The notes under the pieces are model-generated. The model worked only from the letters and a program-made list of their open reading frames with translations, had not been told where the DNA came from and ran no database searches. A DNA stretch of 53,806 bases, counting the filler, from Dimargaris cristalligena (taxonomy: Eukaryota): the NCBI GenBank assembly GCA_003614675.1. It is 4 parts of 4 records of this genome, joined end to end, with 100 filler letters (N's around TTAATTAATTAA, not from the genome) between each part and the next. Parts side by side here need not be neighbours in the genome. Positions count along the whole stretch, not along the records: positions 27,001 to 40,383 come from ML002992.1; 3 more parts are not named here. One strand, written 5' to 3'. Shown in pieces: positions 268-40,483 of the stretch. Position 1 is the stretch's first letter. Each line of letters starts with the position of its first letter. The translations under genes and the position numbers were made by a program.

Positions 268-340
268 GGCCTCGTAGCTCAGTGGAAAGAGCGTTCCCCT
301 CCGGAGGGAAAAGTCCTTGGTTCGACCCCAAGCCTGGTCG
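268..340 (+). tRNA. tRNA-Arg(CCG), acceptor stem has two mismatches
   Basis: Cloverleaf read directly: D stem GCTC/GAGC, anticodon stem TTCCC/GGGAA with loop CT-CCG-GA, T stem CTTGG/CCAAG with TTCGA, A20 in the D loop, T-run terminator just downstream. Confidence 0.85.
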
Positions 341-757
341 CGTTTCTTTTTTAAGATTTTTTTGTTCTAGTCTTACAAATAATTTTATACTATAGTGATG
401 TGGTGGAAGTTGATATCCACGAAGTGTCTTCCATATTTTTAATACTGGGCGTCGTTGTGTTTAAACCCCAATGTTCGATCACGATCAGGCAAAATAATTG
501 CCGGGCACTTTATTTACTATTTCTGGCGGTTTGGCATGAAGAGGGTAAATTTATCTGTTTTTTTTTTATTCTGTCTTGTTTATATTTAACGTCCTAGGGA
601 CTAAATAAATATTGCCAATGGTGATTATGCTGTAATATAGTATAGTCAGAGTACGAGCCCATTTGGTAGTTCAATTGGGCTATTAGTTTCTATCGGAGAG
701 CAATATACAATACAGTGGGCGTAATAGGGCCAGGTCTATGGGGGCTGGCCGCCAATA

Positions 758-13413: not shown

Positions 13414-13513
13414 NNNNNNNNNNNNNNNNNNNNNNNNNNNNNNNNNNNNNNNNNNNNTTAATTAATTAANNNNNNNNNNNNNNNNNNNNNNNNNNNNNNN
13501 NNNNNNNNNNNNN
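13414..13513. other. Artificial contig spacer
   Basis: 44 N + TTAATTAATTAA (stops in all six frames) + 44 N. Confidence 0.97.
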
Positions 13514-26900: not shown

Positions 26901-27000
26901 NNNNNNNNNNNNNNNNNNNNNNNNNNNNNNNNNNNNNNNNNNNNTTAATTAATTAANNNNNNNNNNNNNNNNNNNNNNNNNNNNNNNNNNNNNNNNNNNN
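26901..27000. other. Artificial contig spacer
   Basis: N44-TTAATTAATTAA-N44. Confidence 0.97.
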
Positions 27001-27817
27001 ATATATAACTGGGCCCCATTGGGACCAGTTAGATTCCTTAGCTTATTCTTACCCCCGCAGTTTACCCCAATAAACTCTATATACACTCACTCCCTCTTGT
27101 ACTGACCAGTAAGTGTGCCTGCTGCACATTCCTTACATCAATCCAATCACCTAAACCTTTATTAGTTAGTACTGTGCCCCATACCTAACACTAGTAGCCC
27201 GCTTGGCTGAGTCTAAGCCCCACCTACCATTAGAAGCCTATCCCCGAGACTCTTGATGGACTAAGAGTAGTTAACTCAGGCAACATAAGCTAAAAAAAAC
27301 ATTAGTTCCTAATGGGGAAAAACGGGTAGTTTGGTACCCATATGACATCTGCAACTCCGCTAAGAGACGGGCTATTTATGCTTCAAAGTATAAGGGACTC
27401 GAATTCAATATCAATGGGTTCTTGCTTAGGAGTATAAGTCACATTGGAGTGCATCGACCGTCAAACAGGTCCGCCTCTACAGTACCAACCCCTTGTGGTA
27501 CTGGCCCACATCTAGTTAGTCCAAGATATTGGTAAGAAGTACTACTACAGGTTCTCTTTGAGGCATTACATTCGGTAGTAAGAGCAAGCGAATGCATCAC
27601 TTGACGCGCTTTCTTTGGTAATTTTTATGTACCCCTTATCAAGCGTTTCCGAACACCCCGCTCTTTTCCCATCTATACTGTCCCGCCTTGCCATTATTTC
27701 TCTTTGACATTGGCCCAGCTGAACTCTCTTCCCCATTAGCCTTGGAGCGCCCCTCCCCCACCCCTTTGTGCACTCTACTTGACCATTACTATCATTCTCT
27801 CATTCGGTTCGCCCAGC

Positions 27818-30381
27818 ATGTCCGACCCAACGATAACCGGCGCGGAGGCCTCCACGGATGGGCCTCGCCGATGCTGGATTTGCCTCGGCGATGAAACGGA
27901 TTCCACCGGGTCATGGTCACAGCCCTGTCCCTGCTCCCTCGTTTGCCATACGCAATGCTTAATGCGCTGGGTCACCGAAAGCCAACGAGAGGATCCGCAA
28001 ATGCAGGTAAGCGACCGGTTCTTCCGTTCCATAGTCCATTGGCTTATTCAGTTATTCCTGGCCTGAAAGTGGTTTGTCCCATTTAAGCTCCGCTTCCCCT
28101 GTGACTTACGGTCATGTATCCTATACTAACTCTCCCGAGGACCACCTTGTAATCAAATATATTCCATAATTCCTACATATACGCACTCCAGATTCGCTGC
28201 CCGCAATGCAACACGCCGTATAAAATGGACCGGCAGCATTCTCACATCGTCCGATTTATCAACCGACTCGAACCGCTCGCCACCAAAGCGGCGCTCACCA
28301 TCGCTGCCAGTGGCCTGACCTCTTGTGCATTCACTTGTATGACGACTTACGGGTAAGTTCTTTCCATACTTCTAGCGAAATGTCTCAGACAAATTGTGGC
28401 CCTGGGGAGTGCAAATGGCGTTAACCGCGTATAGTCCGATGCTGCAGCTTTATTTGGCCGTAAATCAAGCGATAAACCCTTCTATTAATCCTTCATTCCA
28501 TTCATACAATACCTCATAATCCCAATTTTTTATTTATACCGATGCCTTTAGTGCCTATGCCGTCCTGACGCTGTGTGGTTCTCTGGAGGGAACGCGTCTC
28601 CTGGGTTCTCCCACCCCCTGGGGATGGCGGATATGGGTAGGTTTAACTTTTGCAACCACTTCCGCCTCTACCTACACACATTTAGTATGCCGTGATTCTT
28701 TGGACAATTGGCTATGAGCAATCCCATTTGCTATACCCTTCTAATCTCGCCAGGTCTATATATTTGATTTTATGTTTTAAATCCTACCGGAATGCAACTT
28801 GCTAGGTGGGCTTGCCCCTGATCCCCATGATCCTTGTCGGCTCTCGTACCCCAATATTCGACAATGTTCTACCTCTACTTCCTCTGATATTTGTGCAGCC
28901 CCACGACCTATCACCAACGTTCCCCCCTAACTCCGCCACTATCGTAACGGCCCTTCCGTGGGTGCGGTAAGTCTCACCCTTTATCCCAGTACAGCTTTTA
29001 CCAACTATTATATTGATTTAAAAAAATCTGCTACCTGGGCCCTCAACTTACTAGCCTAATCTGCAATTATCGGCATTATTTTTATGCTTGCCATATATAG
29101 CATGATCTATAATGGAATATATGATCACTATTTTGGCACGCTCGACCTCGAGTACATTCTACACATGGCACCCGACAGCGTCGATATTGAGACTGCGGTG
29201 AATATTACAACCAATACCGACGATGGCCATGTGTACCGTCAAGTGCTAAACACGTCTCTCGCAGACCAAATCGACTTTATGCAACGAAGGGACTCCATGG
29301 GTCAAGGTAAAGGTGGCTTGTTTAATTCGGGACTTTTGATATCGATGATCTGCCATCCCATCATCAGCTATTTACCCTTTTGATTCACTCTTGCCTCGAC
29401 ATTTCAGTTTTTTTTATCTAATTCAACACTCGGAATTACTAACGGCTGGTTTTCTTTGGTATTTATACGTTGTTGTTTTTTGGCCGAACTGCTTATTTTC
29501 AGATGTTCTAGCTATTGACCAGATAGACCAAATTCATCGCGGCCCTGGGGACACGGTTGTTGAACTACAGACTGGGATTCAACTCAAGGGAACCGCATTT
29601 GTTCGGGCAGTCGTGAGTGCACTTATTTTCCCAGGTAAGGATACTGGCGCTTATATGTATATATCTCTATATTTCTCACCATGGTGGGTCACTGAAATGC
29701 TTAAGTCGTCTTTTATAGCCAGACATACTGGGTGAGTGTTATATGTGGTGTCACTACTGTATCCCATAGCTAATGACCGAAATGTGTATATTTATTTTGA
29801 TTTGATCGGGAATTAGCAATATCGTCTTTCTGTGGAAGGTAAGCTAATATTACATTATATTCATTCAGAGCATACGCCTCGACCCCGATCTTTAATTGCG
29901 CAAAACGATCATCCGCACATGAGCTGACTAATGAGCCTATTTTGATCCGTGTTGGTCGTTGTGCTTTCACCCACTAGTCTTTTGGGCACGATGCCTTTGT
30001 TCCGCTGCAACTTACCTGCCCCATTTCAACGGAATGTACTCGGCGGGTGCCTTTTTGTTCTTTTTAAGGTAGGTCAATTGCTGCGTGACTAGTTACATAC
30101 TTGGGGCGCACAGACGAATTAATCTGAACTACCCTCTATCGATTGGCTATGTATATTCCCCTTGCTGCTAAATAGAGCACATTCCACATTGTCCCGGCCT
30201 GGGCTATCTTTGTCTATTATTGGCGAACTATTTTTTACTGTTAATCTCACACCCTATGCGCGTGCGACTGCTGTATTTTGCATGTTTTTTTCTCTCTCTC
30301 TAGGACATTGTCTCCGTACTGTACAAATATCGAGCGGTACAGTCCCGCAAACGCCGGCGAATCCTAAACTATGGCGAGTAG
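27818..30381 (+). CDS. RING-CH (RINGv) membrane E3 ubiquitin ligase, MARCH5/MITOL-like, ~9 exons
   Basis: CWIC..WSQPCPCSLVCHTQCLMRWV|IRCPQCNTPY, TTYG|AYAVLT, VGLPLIP, RAVVSALIFP|AISSFCGS|LL and QRNVLGGCLFVLFK|D..LYKY..RRRILNY match the MARCH5 layout; includes a 22-nt exon at 29817-29838. Confidence 0.85.
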
Positions 30382-30851: not shown

Positions 30852-32582
30852 CTATGCGCGGTGGCCGTGGGTCTGGCGCCAACTACCCCCCTTAAAGTAT
30901 AACAGAAATCCCAAAGCCGCACCTACGCAGCATGTCAAGGACAGCATAGTAAACGTCCAGCCCACACCAATAGAGCGGCTCACTGAGTCGATTATACCGG
31001 TCCAGAGGGCTGTGTAGAGGCCACGGAACATATTGGCCATGGATGTGATGGAGGCGCTGTTGGTGGTGAACAGATCGACCAGATAGGTGGAAAAAACCGA
31101 AAATATGGCATTGGTGGCGAAACCGACTGGAGGTTGCAATATATGTAGGAAACAGTATATGCGGATAGAAATTAGACCAGAAACCGGGGCAATTCAATCA
31201 ACAAAGTACAGGTACTTCCGATGAATTCGGCACAGTCGCACGATAGGAGCCCTGTGAATTCAAGTTGATTCGGGAGGTGGGTGATGTCCCCAAATAATCG
31301 ATGAACTGGGAGGTGGGTATGGAAACTTACCAAAGAATTGTGAGCACAAGGCAAGAGCAATCGGGGTTTTGAAGTGCATAAACCAGCCGTAAGCCAGTAT
31401 TCCGAGGGGGAAAATAATGCTGCATAGGAGAACAAAGGGAAGCCGCGCTTCCACGGGGCGGTCTTTGGAATGGTCAGCCGAGGTGGATGGAGTGGTAGTA
31501 GGAGGGGAACTCCCCTTCTCGTTGGGCAGGGATGTATCCAGTTGCGTCGACTTGCGTAAGTGACGTTGCAAGGTATAGTCAGCCATGGTCCCCCCTAGAA
31601 TAGCGCCCAGGACGTTACCCGCCCCTGAGGCAATGTAACACAACCCCACGGTGGCGGTGGTGTAGCCATAGTCGCGCTTGAGGAGCACGGTCATGATGGT
31701 GTTCATGGAATAAAACGAGGCCATGATGAGGGACATTTCGACCACGGGAATGACCACATAGGGACGTCGGAGCGTCCCGAATACGGCGAAGGGGTTCAAT
31801 AGGGACCAGGTGAAGATGGGGGGATTCCGAAGGACTTCCTCGCACGAGAGACCTTGCAGGTCGATGCGATACTTCCGCACCACAGAGGGCCGATGGGTTT
31901 CCGGCAGCACAAAGGTCAGGAGGAGCCACGAAATACCGCTCAGAATGGTCGTCATCCAAAAGATCGAGCGCCAGCCGAGGGCCTGGCCGACATAGCCACC
32001 CAGGATAGTTCCGAAAATTGGGCCGGTCATTTGGCCCCCGAAGTACAGGCCGAGCGCTTGACCGCGGTGGGCCGGTTCGTAAATATCGCAAATGGTGCCG
32101 GCTCCTCCGGCGATGAGGACGGACCCCCCAAAAGCCTGGAAGAACCGCATAGCAATTAGACAGGAGGGATTGGGCGACAGGGCACATCCGACCGACGCAG
32201 CGGTACATATGAGAGAGCCGCACGAGAATGCCCAGCGCCGACCGAAATTATCCCCAAGGGGGCCCCAGAGCAAGGGGGCGATGGCCATGGCCGCCATGAA
32301 TACCGAAATAGCCGCGTTGATGGTACTCACAGTAGTATTCATGTCGTTGGCAATATCGGGTAGGGCGGGCAAAAATACATTGGAGCTGAAGGGGGCAACA
32401 ATGCCGGTAAAGGCGATGATGGCCACCATGAAACGTTTATGGACAGTTGAAAATGTCGAATAAGGGACCGGGGAAAGCACGGAGTCGAGCGTCGACTGGC
32501 TCCGGTTATCATGCCAGGTGGTATGGGCACCGTTAGATGAAGGGGACGGCGACTTCCCCGTGACTGTGACTTGCAATGACAT
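30852..32582 (-). CDS. MFS transporter, DHA1 (Qdr/Dtr1-like) family, 2 exons
   Basis: PYSTFS..K, PFSSNVFLPALPDIA, WGPLGDNFGRR, MRFFQAFG, GAGTICDIY..RG and LPETH motifs; last exon TYLVDLF..SAS. Confidence 0.93.
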
Positions 32583-35483
32583 TATAGGTTAAGAACGGGG
32601 GGTTCTTTGAAATTGGGCGTGAATTAGATAGGGAAGTTGCGGTTACTGTATGAGAGTCGTAAAAGTTGGTCGTTATAGCAATCGGGAAAAGGGTGTGCGC
32701 GAAAATAGCAATACATATAAATAAACAGCACACGCCAGGTTGAAACGTGAGTGGGCACCACGGTAAACAAAGCCAAAATAAGCAGGTAGAGCGGGGTCAG
32801 TTTCTATTTGGAGCGAATTCGGTCCAGGTTTATATCGAGCCGGGTTCTCCCAAAGACGGCCCACCCGGTTGCCACCGACTCCTCCTCCCCCCTTGGGAAG
32901 GGGGATTTTTTTAGTGACTATTGGGCGTCAGTTGACCAAGCTGCTCCGTAATTTTTGTTTTTACTGGCGTGCCCCCCCCCCTCCCACTCAGACCCGGCGG
33001 ATTCGACCATACGGGGATTAGGTGTAACATGGACTCACTTTAGCCACAGGCCGAGTGGCAATCCCAACTGGATGAGTATTGCACCCTGCTGAGCTGGCAT
33101 CACCACCCCGTATGCATCGTTTACCCGTTTTACTCGGAGGATGGGTGTGCCCATGCTGAGTCAAGCTGGTCCGGAGACCATCGATCCGGTTGATGTGACG
33201 GCGTATGCCATAGAGGTAGGGATGAATAAGATATACGTGTAACTGTTAACACGTGCGGCGACTTACATAAATCAAAGGTGTGGGGGAGACTATGACTTGG
33301 AGCCAGTCACGAACGCACTAGTAGTCTCGCCAGTAAGTGATGAGTCGTACGTTGAAAATGCCGGAATAAAATATCCGGTCAAGTAATTACAGGTTAATGG
33401 AATCTACCAAAGTCAGGGTGGCGGACTAGACGGAAGCGCTATTTAGAAACAGTCAGCGAATTGTGGCGAAATGCAGAGGAGTGGATGATGTAACTTGGTG
33501 TATAGTATTAAATCGCGGTGGTGGCGGAGCCTACTGCACTACTTATAACACCGGAAGCTGCGTAGGTCAACGGCTTGATCTTACTAACGACTGTCTAAGT
33601 TAACTAGGTGGGCATCAGAGTGTGACTGTATTTAATATAATAGCAGCATAAGTGTGACTGTATCCCCTAGCCCCATGTCACCTCCTACATCGGCTCTTAA
33701 ATACCTCACCAATGAGTACCACCAGCTACATTTAAATTTAATGTTAATGGCGTGCTGCCGGCTATCCCGCTACCCCTGACCACTACGGGAGATTTCGGTT
33801 GCAAAATGTTTTCGTTTTTATAATTTTTGGAAAGAAATATATAATATAGATGCGATTGTAGTAGCCCCTAGCATTGCGCATTCCACGGGATAGTGGATTA
33901 ACGACTTTCTAGCCATTCACTCTCGGAAGATAATGGTGATCGTAGCCACTGCCCCTACTCTACTTCCCTATTACTATAGAATGGGCTAGTGAGCCCCCTT
34001 TTGAATGACGTCAATGGACTGTCCTATCTCGCCAATTAAGGGGAATCGGCCCGACCAGCGTTCGAATGTTTTTTTTTGAAAATGCGGGCTAGGAACGAGC
34101 CTGCCCAATGTCAGCCCGACGCAACGCCATTTATTCTAACAGATTACGGATCACCCGTAATAAATCTGCGATATACCCCCGACTCTTGACAAGACTGGGA
34201 CATGCTACTCTACACTACCGACTCCCGCAGTCCACGTAGCCTATTGTATGGCGGGCCTTTTTTTATTGTGTCTTTTCTCCGCCCGTACCCATCAGCTGAA
34301 ATGGAAATATCACTGCAAATGAGACCACCTGGCCTTTGCTTTATCGAATGCTACATACATGGGTGAAACTCAATCCAACTGTATAAGATTTTGGTTTAGT
34401 AAAGCCCACATTATCAACCGGATACTTCGCTACACATATATCTTGAACCTCGCCTATATTTAACTTGCCAATACCTCCAACTAATGACCTTCCAGTCAGG
34501 GGGAACCCTACCTCTCCCTTATCCTGTTCTCCTGAACGGGGGAAGGAGTCATCGCCGTACTGTAGCGATCTCCTGCTTCGTCAACGATGGTCCAATCATC
34601 TCAGCCTCATCTACTTTTGGCCTGATTATAATGCATTATACGACTTAGATAGAACATATAAAACTGAGGGGTGTGATGACGCTCTCTGCCTCGTATTTTT
34701 GTATTTACGATCATCCCCGATAGCTAGATACCCAATACTTAGTTAGGTGTAAAAATAATAAGCAATGGTATTAATAAAATCCCGGCACAGGTGACCACAT
34801 AGGAACTACACTGCCGTAAAACAAGGAGCTACTGCGATAGGGACTAAACCCGCGACCATTCCCCGCCATCCACCACGTAAAAAACACTCTATAACTGATA
34901 TGTTTCTCATTTAGACATTTACTGCTACTTCGCTCAATCAGCCACAGCTCCACTGCACTAATTAAACTATTTACCCCTCACCATAATGCACCCGACTTTG
35001 AGTCCCCAAGAACAAGAGAATCTTCCCTTCTACCCTTATGTTAGTTCTAAAGTATTAAACATAAAGAATCTGGACCCATATTTACGGTAATTGGCTATTC
35101 AATAAAATATGAATCGTTAAAGCACCCTCGAATTGCGCAATAAGGGTTTAAGGGAGCTAATGCCCTCCTAGATTGAAAGACGTCAGTCTATTTCTAAAGT
35201 TCCGGTTATTATATTGCCAAATGAAAAATAATCCCCAATAGACAATCCAATATGTGAAATTATCTCACCGGTACAATTTACCAATTATGTATATGCCTAT
35301 TTAGCATTTATACCACGTCCAATGTTTACTTTATTGTTCCATTATAAGCAAATAGGACAATAAATATAGCCATGGGGATTCTGAGCTTCGTCCGAAATTA
35401 AGGTGACCCCCCAAAAAAGTGAAATAATCTGCCATTCCGGGGCAGTAAAATGGGGGTAGGCCGCCGATAAGGTAGCAAACCTA

Positions 35484-35866
35484 TTATATGGGGACGACAA
35501 AATCATTGAAAAGGTACTGGCTGCGTTTATCGACAACAACGTAGTCATTCTCATCCAAATCAATTCCTTCGGAATTCAACAGGCTACGCTTGTTGCTCAC
35601 TTTACCGCAACCCCAGTCGCTGTCAAGAAAGAAAAAATTATAGTAAAGCAAAACTAAAGGTTAGAAAAGCTGGGCATTATGGTACACATTGGAAGCAACC
35701 AGTGGACTATCTATAATCAACCAACTTACCCTGAAAACCCACCCAAATAGAGATCAGAGGCGAGGACTCGGTGGCCTACGAGAATTAAGCAGATCTTGTA
35801 AGAGAATCGATTGGTTAGTATTGAGTCAACATGTGCATTGTCCACCAATTGACATGGTAGCGGCCT

Positions 35867-35907
<41 letters not shown>

Positions 35908-36833
35908 TCGTGTTCAATCCACGAAGGGCGCATCATTGATGTTCACTGTGTTATCGTTGTACAATGTTATCTGTGATTATTTTTTCATTTGCGATTATTT
36001 TTTTCATCAAACACTTACATGGTACAGGGAGGGGATCGAATGGGTTATTCCTTAGAGCCTGGCCCACTATGATGGATGAGTAAATAGGATGGAGGGCCAA
36101 ATGAGAAGTGCGACTATTTTGGTAAATACCATGGTAAAGGGTAGTAACATAAAATAGGGTGGTGGACCACCATAACAATGTGTGGATGTAGAATATTTAC
36201 CTGCGCGCGGGGACGATTTGAGGGCGTCCGAGATCATTTTGTAGGTGGAAATACGACCAGCGGGAATCTTATTACCATGGGCATATGTAGATTAGTGAGT
36301 TGATGGTAGATATCCCACATGGATACGGTTAAGTACGAAGGGGGTTAGTTACGAATAATCTGGACTTTAAAGCAATTTGCGAAAAAAAAACTGGAATAAA
36401 GAGAGGGCCGGTTGGCAAAGCGACTATTAGCCGCTATAAGCCAAGGCTTACCTGGGCGCAGAGGTCATAAACTCTGAACTGAAACTCCGTCACCCGTCTA
36501 CTTGTTTTGGAGTTGATGAAATCCGACCGTTCGCCCGACTGGGTGGGGAAGTACTTGACTGCTGGCGGGAACGCACGGGCCAAAGACATATATATATATA
36601 TATATATATAAGCATCGCTGTTAGTCAGGAAATTCGCACATGAGTTAGCCGTATCCCTTATGGGCTATTGCCTAGATTCGAGGACGAGGGTCTCGCTATT
36701 CCGTCAGGGTTAGTTAGGGTGAACCTTATCTAGTGAAGTTACCCCTCCCAGAAACACTTGGTGGGTGCTGCGGCTACCGAAAAGGGAGCTTACCTTCCGT
36801 GGCGGAGTCCACATTCACAACGGGCGGGGACAT
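35484..36833 (-). CDS. MGMT: O6-methylguanine-DNA methyltransferase, 147 aa, 6 exons (not recovered as a gene in the ORF track)
   Basis: Exons 36833-36794, 36558-36452, 36267-36201, 36066-36019, 35775-35730 and 35619-35484 are all GT-AG and in phase. They give VTEFQFRVYDLCAQIPAGRISTYKMISDALKSSPRAVGQALRNNPFDPLPVPCHRVLASDLYLGGFSG..KRSLLNSEG. Confidence 0.95.
35860..35932 (+). tRNA. tRNA-Phe(GAA), nested antisense in MGMT intron 4
   Basis: GCGGCCT-TA-GCTCAGTTGGGAGAGC-G-TCAGA-CTGAAGA-TCTGA-AGGTC-TCGTG-TTCAATC-CACGA-AGGGCGC-A; one G.G mismatch in the acceptor stem; T6 terminator at 35980-35985. Confidence 0.95.
36588..36610. repeat. (AT)n microsatellite in MGMT intron 1
   Basis: Seen directly. 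Confidence 0.9.
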
Positions 36834-37695
36834 GGTGAGTACAGACGATAGGAAGCTGCAAAGAGCGGACAAAGGTGGATTGGTGTAGGACGTATGTTAA
36901 AGTCGACGACACGGAAGGCCTGAAAAGTGAGGAAAGAGAGGTAAAGGAAGCCGAGTGCAGCAGTGCAGAGTATTTGAAACTTTTATGATGGTGTCGTAGT
37001 TGCTGCGGCATCTGGGGGGGAGAGCTCTGTTGCTCGCTGACCCTGTCGTGTTCCTGTGAGTAGTGGTGTGGGGGACACTATTGCATCAGAGTATGGGAAA
37101 TAGGAGGAGGGCTGTGAAATGACAAGGGTCACGTGTATATTCTTACTGTGTTTATAGATGTGCTCTCCTCCCTCCACCCTTCAAACCCTCCACAATACTC
37201 AAACCTTGGTCTCCTATATCCCAAACTGGTATAAATGTTCTTGAGGCTGAGATGCTCTACTTCTCCTCAACTTATACCCCAGTTTCCCTCCCTGTCGATA
37301 TACATCGAACTGCACATGGGACAGGAGGAGGAGTGTTTGGTACATGTATGGGAAATGGACCCCGAAACGGTCGGGTAATTGGCCACTGTACCGAAGGTAT
37401 ATTATTAATTGGGTACTTTTGGAGCGGGTCACTGAGCTGGGGTCCTTTGTAGAGGACATGAGGCCGGATGAGTGCGGGTTGGCAGACCACACCTGTCGAC
37501 CAGCCAAGGTGCAGTTAGGGGCCTAACACCTTCTCCAATCACCACCACCACAAGTCATCTGTTCTGTGCATTGCTCCCCAGGGTTATTTATCTGCTTGTT
37601 TATTCCTATTCATTTTGCCTCCACTTTCCATCCACCCGACCTCATCTCATACCATCCCCCCCTCCCGCCCATCCGCACCCGCTAAACTCGCCACC

Positions 37696-39605
37696 ATGGA
37701 TTCAATCTCAATGTGGGATGTCAAGGACATGTTCAACAAAGTGTAGGTGATATTTCCGAGACTGTTGTATCCCCGTAACCCCCGCAAGCTATTCAATCGG
37801 AGGCTTGGTGCCACTAGATACGGTGCAGCTGTTCCGTTTTAGGTCCTGGAGTTGGCCGAATTGACAATACCCATCCCAATCCCTCAACCACCCTCAGCCT
37901 TCCAATGCACTACTTATCAAGTTACTCTCGAAAATCGTTTATACTTAAACCCAATCCCTCACCTTTATATTAACCAGGAAAAATGTTGTCATGAACTACA
38001 CCGAAATGGAAATCAAAGTCAACGAGGCTACGAACGGCGACGCCTGGGGTGCCTCCAGCACTCTAATGAAGGAAATTGCCCAGGCCACGTACAGCTTGTA
38101 AGTTTGACCTAGCTCCAAACCTCGTTTCCCTATGTTTAGCAACCCCGCTAGCGGCTAGGTTAGTGCGGCCCTTTAACGCATACTTGTCTAATACCCACCC
38201 ATACTATGCGTTCTGTCTACATACGCCACTCTCACCCGCATGCCTTGGCTACCATGTCACCTATACTAGCCAAAACTTCAACGAGATTATGCCGTGTATC
38301 TACAAGCGATTTTCGGAATGCGAGGCCCACCAGTGGCGACAGATTTACAAGGCCCTTACTCTGCTGGAGTACCTCCTTAAAAACGGCTCCGACCGGGTGG
38401 TGGACGATGTCAAGGCCCATATTACCACCATAAAGATGCTACGTAGTTTCCACCACATTGACGACCAGGGTAAGGACCAGGGCATCAATGTGCGCCAGCG
38501 GGCCAAGGAGCTGGTCGAGCTGATCCAAAGCTCCGCCCGCATCCGTGAGGAACGGGCCAAGGCCAAAGCCAACCGCAACAAGTACACGGGAGTTAGCTCA
38601 AGCTCCGGTGGTTACGGAGGCTTCGGCAGTTCCAATTCCGATAATTTTGGGCGTTCCAGCAGTCGCTATCAGGATGACGACAGCAACACCAGCGAGTACT
38701 CCCGTAGCCAGTCTTCGAGCCGGTCCTACCGGGACTCGCCCACTTCCTCTAATGCCACCACCACCTCTTCCTCCCGGATGAACACTACCCGCTCCACTCC
38801 CCGAGCCCCACGGGCCCCTAGTCCCCCACCAGCCAGCAGCGAGCCGACCCCAAGCCTGTTGGATTTGGACGATTTCAATGCGATGCCCACTCCGACCCCG
38901 GCCGTTCAGCCGGCGATGTCTCTAATGGACGCCGGTAATTCCAGCCTTATGGATAGTGTCGCCACCTCGGGTGGGGCTCAGGACGACGACTGGGGTGACT
39001 TCCAATCCACGGGCGCCCTCAGTAATACCATCACTACCCCGGCCCCTCCTTCGGCCCTGGCTCCCCAGTCGGCTTCAGCCGATTTACTGGCAAATGACTT
39101 TGATTTCCTAAGTGTAGGTGGAAACGCCGGTGCCAATAATGTCCCCATGAGTCACCAACCCCAGTCGTTCGCATCTACCCCGCTTGCGGCTCCCCAATCA
39201 TCTAGGAGCCCGGGCCTGTCCAGTTTGACTACTCCTTCCACCGCTTCTCCCGCCAATGCCGCCTCCCCAAAGCCCGGCAATGATATTTGGAGTCAAAACG
39301 CTAGCCTGGTGTCCCTCGATCTTCTCGGCTCAAGAACCTCCGGAAAACCCGCCAAGGCCCCCGCGAAACCTTCCATGAACTCGCTGGCTAGTATGCAGGC
39401 AATGAATAAATTAAGCCAGTCCACCGCTAGCCCCATGGCGGATTGGGGAAGTAACTTCAACAGTGCCAATGCCAGTCGGACATCGCCGGCCATGGGCTCA
39501 TCCTTGGCCGGTTCTTCCGCTAGTCTGGGTTCCGGTCGGCCAGCTGCCACTGCTAACCAGGCTATTACGCCTATTTCCAAGAGTGATTTGGACCTTTTCC
39601 TTTAA
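37696..39605 (+). CDS. ENT3: ENTH-domain epsin-related protein (Ent3/epsinR type), 3 exons
   Basis: MWDVKDMFNKV|KNVVMNYTEMEIKVNEATNGDAWGASSTLMKEIA, WRQIYKALTLLEYLLKNGS and GKDQGINVR motifs; tail carries LLDLD clathrin-box-like and DDDWGDFQ AP-1/GGA-ear-type motifs. Confidence 0.92.
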
Positions 39606-40309
39606 GACATTATCGATCTTCACATTGTTCTCTCGCTTCCTTTCTCTTTCCCTCTTCTTTTCTCGTATTAATTTTGCTCATACCAGTTTATCGAAATATA
39701 TATATATATATTATATTGGTGGCATCCTAGCCAAACCACATTATCTGCCGTGTACGTTGGCTTATTTGCATTAGGCTTCAGCCGCCTATTTTTGGCGCAG
39801 TCGAAAGACATATTTCTAACCCATTGCCGCCACCATCCGCTAATTTTACCCCGGTCCGAACAGTTTGGTTAAGGAGAGAATATATGGGTGGGTACCAACA
39901 CAATTGTATACAATTATAAATGATACATGAAAAAATCGGTGGAGTGTTTATTTTTTACTAAAAATACTCTCGTTTTATCAAACCCATTATTCAATCCATC
40001 ACCCACTGTATCTTCCCTATATTAATTTTAAACCATGCCCACCCAAATGTACTTAATTTACATTCCTGTATTTCTAGGGAGCGAATATTGTGTTTTTTAT
40101 TTCACTTTCAATGACAGCGCAGAAAAGTAGCTAAGCAGCAATTCAGTGGATGGTGATGTATGTGGGCGTGTATACAAGCGAGTCGGCGGGAGCGACAGCC
40201 TGAGAGTATAGAATGAACGAGTAGTGAATTAGTCTAGTAAAAAAAAATCGCAAATGAAAAAATAATCACAGATAACATTGTACAACGATAACACAGTGAA
40301 CATCAATGA

Positions 40310-40334
40310 TGCGCCCTTCGTGGATTGAACACGA

Positions 40335-40375
<41 letters not shown>

Positions 40376-40377
40376 AG
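40310..40377 (-). pseudogene. 5'-truncated copy of tRNA-Phe(GAA), within a 139-bp inverted duplicate of 35865-36003
   Basis: 40239-40377 is the reverse complement of 35865-36003 with one mismatch. The first five tRNA bases are replaced and the contig ends 6 nt later. Confidence 0.8.
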
Positions 40378-40383
40378 CATACC

Positions 40384-40483
40384 NNNNNNNNNNNNNNNNN
40401 NNNNNNNNNNNNNNNNNNNNNNNNNNNTTAATTAATTAANNNNNNNNNNNNNNNNNNNNNNNNNNNNNNNNNNNNNNNNNNNN
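40384..40483. other. Artificial contig spacer
   Basis: N44-TTAATTAATTAA-N44. Confidence 0.97.

Follow-up and report, generated by a model that had tools for sequence, protein, structure and literature searches.

The stretch of DNA analysed here (the window; 53,806 nt) consists of four contigs of the early-diverging fungus Dimargaris cristalligena (assembly GCA_003614675.1) joined by linkers of the form N44-TTAATTAATTAA-N44 at 13414-13513, 26901-27000 and 40384-40483, so that features on different pieces are not genomic neighbours. The third contig (ML002992.1; 27001-40383, 13,383 nt) carries a gene for an O6-alkylguanine-DNA alkyltransferase (MGMT), in which an intron interrupts the codon of the catalytic cysteine. 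A complete tRNA-Phe(GAA) gene lies inside this intron on the opposite strand, and the arrangement was found in two samples. We read it as an ordinary nested gene pair, in which one member of the multi-copy tRNA-Phe(GAA) family is placed antisense in an MGMT intron and no coupling between the two genes has evolved, with a probability of about 0.6. As such it would be a clean example of nested genes for RNA polymerase II (Pol II) and RNA polymerase III (Pol III) in an early-diverging fungus.

The MGMT gene and the intron in its active-site codon

The MGMT gene and its host intron comprise the following features.

35484-36589, minus strand: MGMT, from ATG to stop, five exons, 144 amino acids
36589-36452, 36267-36201, 36066-36019, 35775-35730 and 35619-35484, minus strand: the five MGMT exons, in the order of the reading strand
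36019-36066, minus strand: exon 3, 48 nt, in frame, encoding (V)GQALRNNPFDPLPVP and the first base, T, of the Cys85 codon
35776-36018, minus strand: host intron of the tRNA gene, 243 nt, phase 1, GTAAGT..TAG, inside codon 85 (the Cys of PCHRV), which is split into T and GC
35814-35820, minus strand: TACTAAC branch site, a perfect match, with CTAAC at intron position 201

In order, the introns measure 184, 134, 243 and 110 nt. Joined by a coordinate-based script, the exons form a 435-nt coding sequence whose translation equals the public protein P0001 letter for letter. P0001 was found by a search with the exon 1 translation (100% identity, 144 amino acids) and is named 6-O-methylguanine DNA methyltransferase, Dimargaris cristalligena, at NCBI. 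By family and active-site motif the gene is MGMT, and alkyl transfer is predicted. The protein matches PF01035 (DNA_binding_1) with 77.1 bits (cut-off 27) over profile positions 1-81 of 81. Pfam searches with single exons gave only weak matches, all under the PF01035 cut-off; a DUF348 match among them was dismissed as a chance hit. The best solved relatives are the archaeal OGTs 1wrj (E 2e-14) and 4zyg, with SPRAVG and PCHRV aligned, and weaker structure matches were obtained to human MGMT and S. pombe Atl1. PCHRV occupies residues 84-88 of P0001 and is aligned to the same motif of 1wrj and 4zyg, with Cys85 as the acceptor. Alkyltransferase-like (ATL) proteins lack this acceptor cysteine. In an alignment of 26 sequences, conservation is at least 90% at C85, H86, R87 and V88. 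The homologue search returned 229 proteins at E 1e-8 or better, the nearest from D. verticillata, Tieghemiomyces parasiticus, Dispira simplex and Syncephalis, followed by Mortierellomycotina, Basidiobolus, Mucorales and Kickxellales. With the MGMT/OGT family (1wrj, 4zyg, 1eh6) the Dimargaris protein shares the DNA-binding/active-site domain, PCHRV, the SPRAVG helix and the NNP hinge. It differs in its shortness and in lacking the N-terminal domain PF02870, as do its relatives from early-diverging fungi.

The first-pass annotation of this DNA had described a 243-nt GTAAGT..TAG intron that splits the PCHRV cysteine codon after its T, and the identity of the joined coding sequence with P0001 bears this out. 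Its numbering as intron 4 holds when the upstream exon of a rival public annotation, P0002 (MSPPVVNVDSATE), is spliced in; in the P0001 model the intron is the third. Its reading of intron retention was likewise confirmed by translation, which runs through ...PLPVPCKCLMKKIIANEKIITDNIVQR into a stop; the read-through includes ...PLPVPCKCLMKK... and reaches a stop after 20 further residues. Protein comparison gives good support for splicing. Removal of the intron restores the frame and the PLPVPCHRV seen in full-length homologues, and the spliced protein aligns gap-free across the exon 3/exon 4 junction in the 26-sequence alignment; because frame and conserved sequence are restored, we infer that the intron is spliced out. 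Its signals GTAAGT and TACTAAC, the latter being the yeast-type branch consensus, are the best in the gene. The branch A lies about 39 nt from the 3′ splice site, and on the DNA the TACTAAC motif is found 40-46 nt upstream of the start of the tRNA gene.

The RNA fold of the intron was unremarkable (z = -0.91; 37 of 200 shuffled sequences folded at least as well), and the idea of a special intron structure was dropped since the fold is no better than that of shuffled sequences. The position of the intron in the codon of the acceptor cysteine is most likely a coincidence, spotted in hindsight: of the coding sequence's 431 internucleotide positions, 2 lie within this codon, which corresponds to a chance of 0.5% for one given intron and of 1.9% for any of four.

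P0002, from the same species, has 131 amino acids. It omits exactly exon 3 and hence lacks VGQALRNNPFDPLPVPC including the catalytic cysteine. This may be an annotation error at the intron that bears the tRNA, or else it may hint at an isoform in which the exon is skipped. We offer the nested tRNA arrangement as an explanation for the loss of the active-site exon from this annotation. The two public annotations also differ at the 5′ end of MGMT. An (AT)11 microsatellite at 36588-36609 abuts the start codon of the P0001 model, and the contigs of one DNA run (X1) break there (36577-36618).

The tRNA-Phe(GAA) gene inside the intron

Within the intron, the following elements read against the direction of MGMT.

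35860-35932, plus strand, antisense to MGMT: tRNA-Phe(GAA), 73 nt, called by ARAGORN and Rfam
35933-35979, plus strand: 3′ trailer, 47 nt between the tRNA and the first T run, single-copy
35980-35985, plus strand: T6, first candidate Pol III terminator, at +48; the 5′ splice site (36018) is 33 nt away
35998-36004, plus strand: T7, back-up candidate Pol III terminator, at +66 and 14 nt from the exon 3 boundary

The tRNA-Phe sequence matches RF00005 over its full length (positions 1-71 of 71) with 61.5 bits (gathering score 29; E 1e-11). Together with the ARAGORN call this upholds the first-pass claim of a complete antisense tRNA-Phe(GAA) gene, and the T6 terminator, said there to lie about 30 nt from the 5′ splice site, proved to be 33 nt away. 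The tRNA itself is located 86-158 nt from that site. Its acceptor stem contains one non-standard pair, G4-G69 (35863 and 35928), and the A-box and B-box regions look intact by comparison with the consensus. The gene is thus followed by an oligo-T terminator like other tRNA genes, at a greater distance than in two other tRNA genes of the window. A search of the 47-nt trailer against Rfam gave no match at E up to 1. By eye it resembles a box C/D RNA, but a dicistronic unit of this kind was rejected because the trailer is too short. Since the trailer is unique to the locus, it is usable as a locus-specific tag of transcription.

Five DNA runs contain this stretch, four from one sample, which is a possible source of the window, and one (X5) from a second sample and study. 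Contigs of X1, X3, X4 and X5 were placed on 34500-40383. A single 3629-nt contig of X1 spans 34500-36576, including the whole intron, without any differences. The contigs of X3, X4 and X5 break exactly at the tRNA, with left parts ending at 35889 and right parts running over 35904-40248. In X5, the exon 4 side leads into the 5′ end of the tRNA (34500-35889), and the 3′ end of the tRNA leads out through exon 3. Might an artefact of assembly or amplification have placed the tRNA inside the gene? The same contig does end in an apparent inverted chimera of this very segment. Nevertheless, both junctions between tRNA and intron are present in all four placed runs, including that of the second sample and study, and X1 bridges the intron; the arrangement is therefore not an assembly artefact on this evidence, and we consider such an origin extremely improbable.

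The tRNA sequence itself is repeated. The exact 73 nt (35860-35932) form a separate contig in X4 and X5, with a depth of 1186 compared to 182.6 and 196.1 in the flanks in X5, and of 697.7 compared to 181.4 and 108.2 in X4. Pieces of the tRNA in X3 have depths of 600 and 521 versus 112.2 and 53.6. Contig depth is not a copy number, and the excess of about 5-7 times over the flanks is taken only as a sign of several copies. In addition, at least five other contigs (7241, 4821, 1716, 1699 and 645 nt) stop within the first or last 30 nt of the tRNA; their flanks are different. Among the matches listed, the trailer of another tRNA-Phe gene is visible as a loose end, with a T5 at +14. As all 73 nt, including G4-G69, are common family sequence, the intronic gene is a canonical copy and not a decayed pseudogene, and the mismatched pair seems to be normal for the tRNA-Phe(GAA) family of this species instead of a defect of the intronic copy.

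From the 3′ end of the tRNA the contigs of X3, X4 and X5 continue unbranched through the trailer and on for 4.3 kb. Thus only the 73-nt tRNA is repeated and the trailer is single-copy; a tRNA-derived short interspersed nuclear element (SINE) was rejected as a candidate, as no repeated body is shared beyond the tRNA. Between 34500 and 40248, the X5 contigs show 11 single-base changes relative to the window, together with an insertion of 8 nt (CCACAGCT after 34941). Such a divergence of about 0.2% is consistent with another strain of the same species. The tRNA contains none of these differences and the trailer contains one (A>T at 35961).

The tRNA and its trailer (about 145 nt) make up some 60% of the intron. 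Subtracting them leaves about 98 nt, near the 110-184 nt of the other introns. One might imagine from this that the Cys-codon intron is young and arose from or together with the insertion of a tRNA-bearing segment. Metagenome relatives of MGMT bear on this idea. A scan with the patterns PLP[VI]PCHRV and GQAL[RK]xNP[FY][AD] yielded 80 loci, four of which were examined. Two of these, L001 (1501-1761, 64% identity) and L002 (1501-1827, 52%), look eukaryotic and fungal-like and have no Cys-codon intron. Their matches end at residue 100, exactly where intron 4 of the Dimargaris gene falls. In L002 a further interruption, which contains a stop codon, coincides exactly with intron 1. In the other two loci (L003 and L004) MGMT is uninterrupted. 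At least intron positions 1 and 4 thus appear to be shared beyond Dimargaris, and the Cys-codon intron is, on these gene sequences, not universal among apparent relatives sharing other intron positions. This pattern favours such a gain. However, the patterns demand an uninterrupted PLP[VI]PCHRV, so that the scan is blind to genes with a Cys-codon intron and could only find loci lacking one. Moreover, no target-site duplication was seen by eye at the intron ends. We regard an origin of the intron with the tRNA as very improbable. A literature search on MGMT intron positions gave nothing relevant.

Relation between the two genes

Two further tRNA genes of the window serve as comparators.

268-341, plus strand: tRNA-Arg(CCG), T run at +6, 268 nt from the contig end
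6542-6624, minus strand: tRNA-Leu(TAG), T run at +6, between a GT25 gene and a GT1-type gene

In both, AT-rich and TATA-like sequence occurs within 40 nt upstream, and a T6 or T5 run follows at +6. The 70 nt upstream of the intronic tRNA-Phe gene, in contrast, are not AT-rich and contain no TATA-like stretch, and the first run of at least four T residues follows at +48. This region is formed by the 3′ portion of the MGMT intron and takes in the branch site. Perhaps the intronic copy is expressed poorly, or the host's splice signals constrain its flanks; the comparison, which draws on two to three genes only, gives no more than a hint.

If the first of these applied fully, the tRNA gene would be a silent passenger, perfect in sequence and transcriptionally inactive owing to its poor upstream context or to repression by transcription of the host, without any effect on MGMT. 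Its late T run (+48, compared to +6 in both comparators and +14 at another tRNA-Phe locus) and the upstream region, which is not AT-rich, point in this direction. In C. elegans, intronic tRNA genes are reported, in the excerpted text, to have a lower Pol III occupancy than intergenic ones (PMC4999229). On the other hand, 73 of 73 nt equal the sequence of the multi-copy family and the internal promoter regions are intact. The comparators are also few, and this fungus may not need upstream elements. We hold silence of the copy to be a possible, though doubtful, explanation.

Under the reading of an ordinary nested pair, MGMT and tRNA-Phe would be transcribed independently of each other. The Pol III transcript would begin a few bases upstream of 35860 and end at either T6 (35980-35985) or T7 (35998-36004), while Pol II would read the opposite strand, and the whole Pol III unit would leave the MGMT pre-mRNA with the intron. 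Head-on interference between the two polymerases might occur as a by-product.

Several observations weigh against this reading. Our literature search for nuclear intronic tRNA genes in fungi gave only mitochondrial or non-fungal cases, and for this reason such genes may be less frequent in fungi with short introns than they are in animals. In the window, tRNA-Arg and tRNA-Leu are not visibly inside genes, which leaves common nesting in this genome unsupported. Their gene context was judged by Pfam searches on 36 of the 123 open reading frames of at least 90 amino acids, those on contigs 1 and 3, and among these no recognisable exons were found beside tRNA-Leu; as exons are short here, the failure to see nesting is weak evidence. 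Furthermore, the Pol III unit takes up at least 126 of the 243 nt of the intron and its upstream region lies over the branch site, so that some functional interaction is quite conceivable. Elsewhere, an antisense Pol III unit lowers the output of its host about 1.5-fold, as reported in the excerpted account (PMC5358760).

The latter case is the closest precedent for regulation by a nested Pol III unit. Intron 1 of mammalian Polr3e contains an antisense MIR, a tRNA-derived SINE transcribed by Pol III, which acts as a roadblock for Pol II; according to excerpts of the report its deletion raises expression about 1.5-fold, and in a reporter the element was effective in the antisense orientation only (Yeganeh et al. 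2017, PMC5358760). Polr3e and the Dimargaris gene have in common a Pol III unit with A- and B-boxes that lies antisense within a Pol II gene's intron and is directed head-on against the gene. They differ in that the Polr3e element is a SINE, whereas the Dimargaris element is a bona fide tRNA gene in an intron of only 243 nt. The Polr3e effect is backed, in the portion of that work referred to, by Pol III occupancy, conservation in mammals, CRISPR deletion and a reporter, whereas the Dimargaris case is known from its sequence alone.

With this precedent a regulatory mechanism would be plausible, and the tRNA unit might be a selected regulator. Pol III, TFIIIB and TFIIIC would then impede Pol II, or the trailer would pair with the intron, and MGMT would rise when Maf1 represses Pol III after alkylation damage. 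The head-on orientation, the filling of most of the intron and the adjacency to both splice signals fit such a role. The Polr3e MIR, inactive in sense orientation, lowers host expression through the Pol II roadblock and is conserved in mammals, again according to excerpts (PMC5358760), and the pairings between intronic tRNA genes and their hosts are reported in part of a further study to be conserved among Caenorhabditis species (PMC4999229). Against this, the intronic copy has neither an AT-rich, TATA-like upstream region nor a terminator at +6 and may be weakly transcribed. The link to Maf1 and DNA damage is a hypothesis. In addition, the effect in the one tested precedent is modest, about 1.5-fold in the excerpted report (PMC5358760). 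Taken together, we judge a selected regulatory role to be unlikely. If the coupling were true, the locus would offer, in a short-intron fungus, a compact and genetically tractable system in which Pol III activity gates an enzyme of DNA repair.

A narrower version of this coupling can be conceived from the position of the Pol III unit. With Pol III active, head-on collision, or TFIIIB/TFIIIC bound over the branch-site DNA and beside the 5′ splice site, might limit productive MGMT transcripts or favour the loss of the 48-nt exon 3, and repression of Pol III after alkylation stress would then raise full-length MGMT, the unit acting as a valve; in a variant, the intron arose together with the tRNA. 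We consider this scheme improbable.

Among animals, tRNA genes inside introns are nothing unusual. Of 609 tRNA genes in C. elegans, 44% lie in introns, a fraction no different from chance, and only 56% of these are in the sense orientation, as far as reported in excerpts of that study (Sagi et al. 2016, PMC4999229). Conserved host/tRNA pairings and an influence of the host promoter on the tRNA are also described there (PMC4999229). In Drosophila the intronic fraction is 46% according to the text excerpted (PMC9249942). As far as these excerpts go, the intronic genes in both animals are, as in Dimargaris, ordinary members of tRNA families that occur in either orientation, e.g. sup-7 in intron 3 of C03B1.2. 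The influence documented in the C. elegans excerpts runs from the host promoter to the tRNA. The animal introns are long, whereas the Pol III unit takes up almost the whole of the Dimargaris intron. In Arabidopsis, tRNA-Pro genes antisense to AtNUDT22 reportedly show an expression negatively correlated with that of the gene, as cited from Lukoszek et al. (2013) in PMC5358760. These tRNA genes are antisense like that of Dimargaris, but form a cluster of nine.

A tRNA shape in an intron can also act at the level of splicing. Intronic tRNA look-alikes of mitochondrial origin (nimtRNAs) enhance splicing, and nuclear tRNA genes were without effect in the excerpted description (Hoser et al. 2020, PMC7722341). 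The nimtRNAs resemble the present case as tRNA shapes in introns, including the reverse-complement orientation, and lie 50-100 nt from the 5′ splice site in that description, compared to 86-158 nt for the Dimargaris tRNA. They are, however, derived from nuclear mitochondrial DNA segments and act in the pre-mRNA, as described in part there, whereas the Dimargaris intron folds no better than its shuffles.

Overall, the evidence leans slightly against a selected coupling, because of the atypical flanks of the intronic copy, the lack of a Cys-codon intron in L001 and L002, in a scan biased towards loci without one, and the chance-level rate at which C. elegans tRNA genes are intronic. The ordinary nested pair, with a tRNA-Phe copy that is presumably transcribed by Pol III and appears to have no selected regulatory role, is the reading we prefer.

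Neighbouring genes and the contig end

MGMT shares its contig with an ENTH-domain (epsin-like) gene (38070-39602, plus strand), an MFS transporter gene (31263-32588, minus strand) and a gene for a RING-variant protein (27740-28063, plus strand). These neighbours suggest no DNA-repair cluster.

A second tRNA-Phe call was obtained at the end of the same contig.

40249-40383, minus strand: inverted copy of 35856-35994, comprising the tRNA, its trailer and the 4 nt (GGTA) on its 5′ side, found by alignment

ARAGORN and Rfam (49.8 bits) place this tRNA at 40310-40382 on the minus strand, with a broken acceptor stem. Starting at tRNA position 6, the copy equals the intronic locus across the trailer as far as GCGA. 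Within the window the trailer thus has two exact matches, the second of them at the contig end, where the contig stops at 40383. The contigs of X3, X4 and X5 track the window up to 40248 and then continue, without a branch, into other sequence (ATGAAATGTATAAT...) over a length exceeding 2 kb, which reaches about 4 kb in X4 and X5. Multiple displacement amplification makes inverted chimeras. A published genome of the species was obtained from single cells with this method, as stated in the excerpted report (PMC6784888). The segment 40249-40383 is probably no second gene, but an inverted chimera of assembly or amplification with its junction at an A/T run. With the second tRNA-Phe taken as a chimera, the window contains three real tRNA genes, not four.

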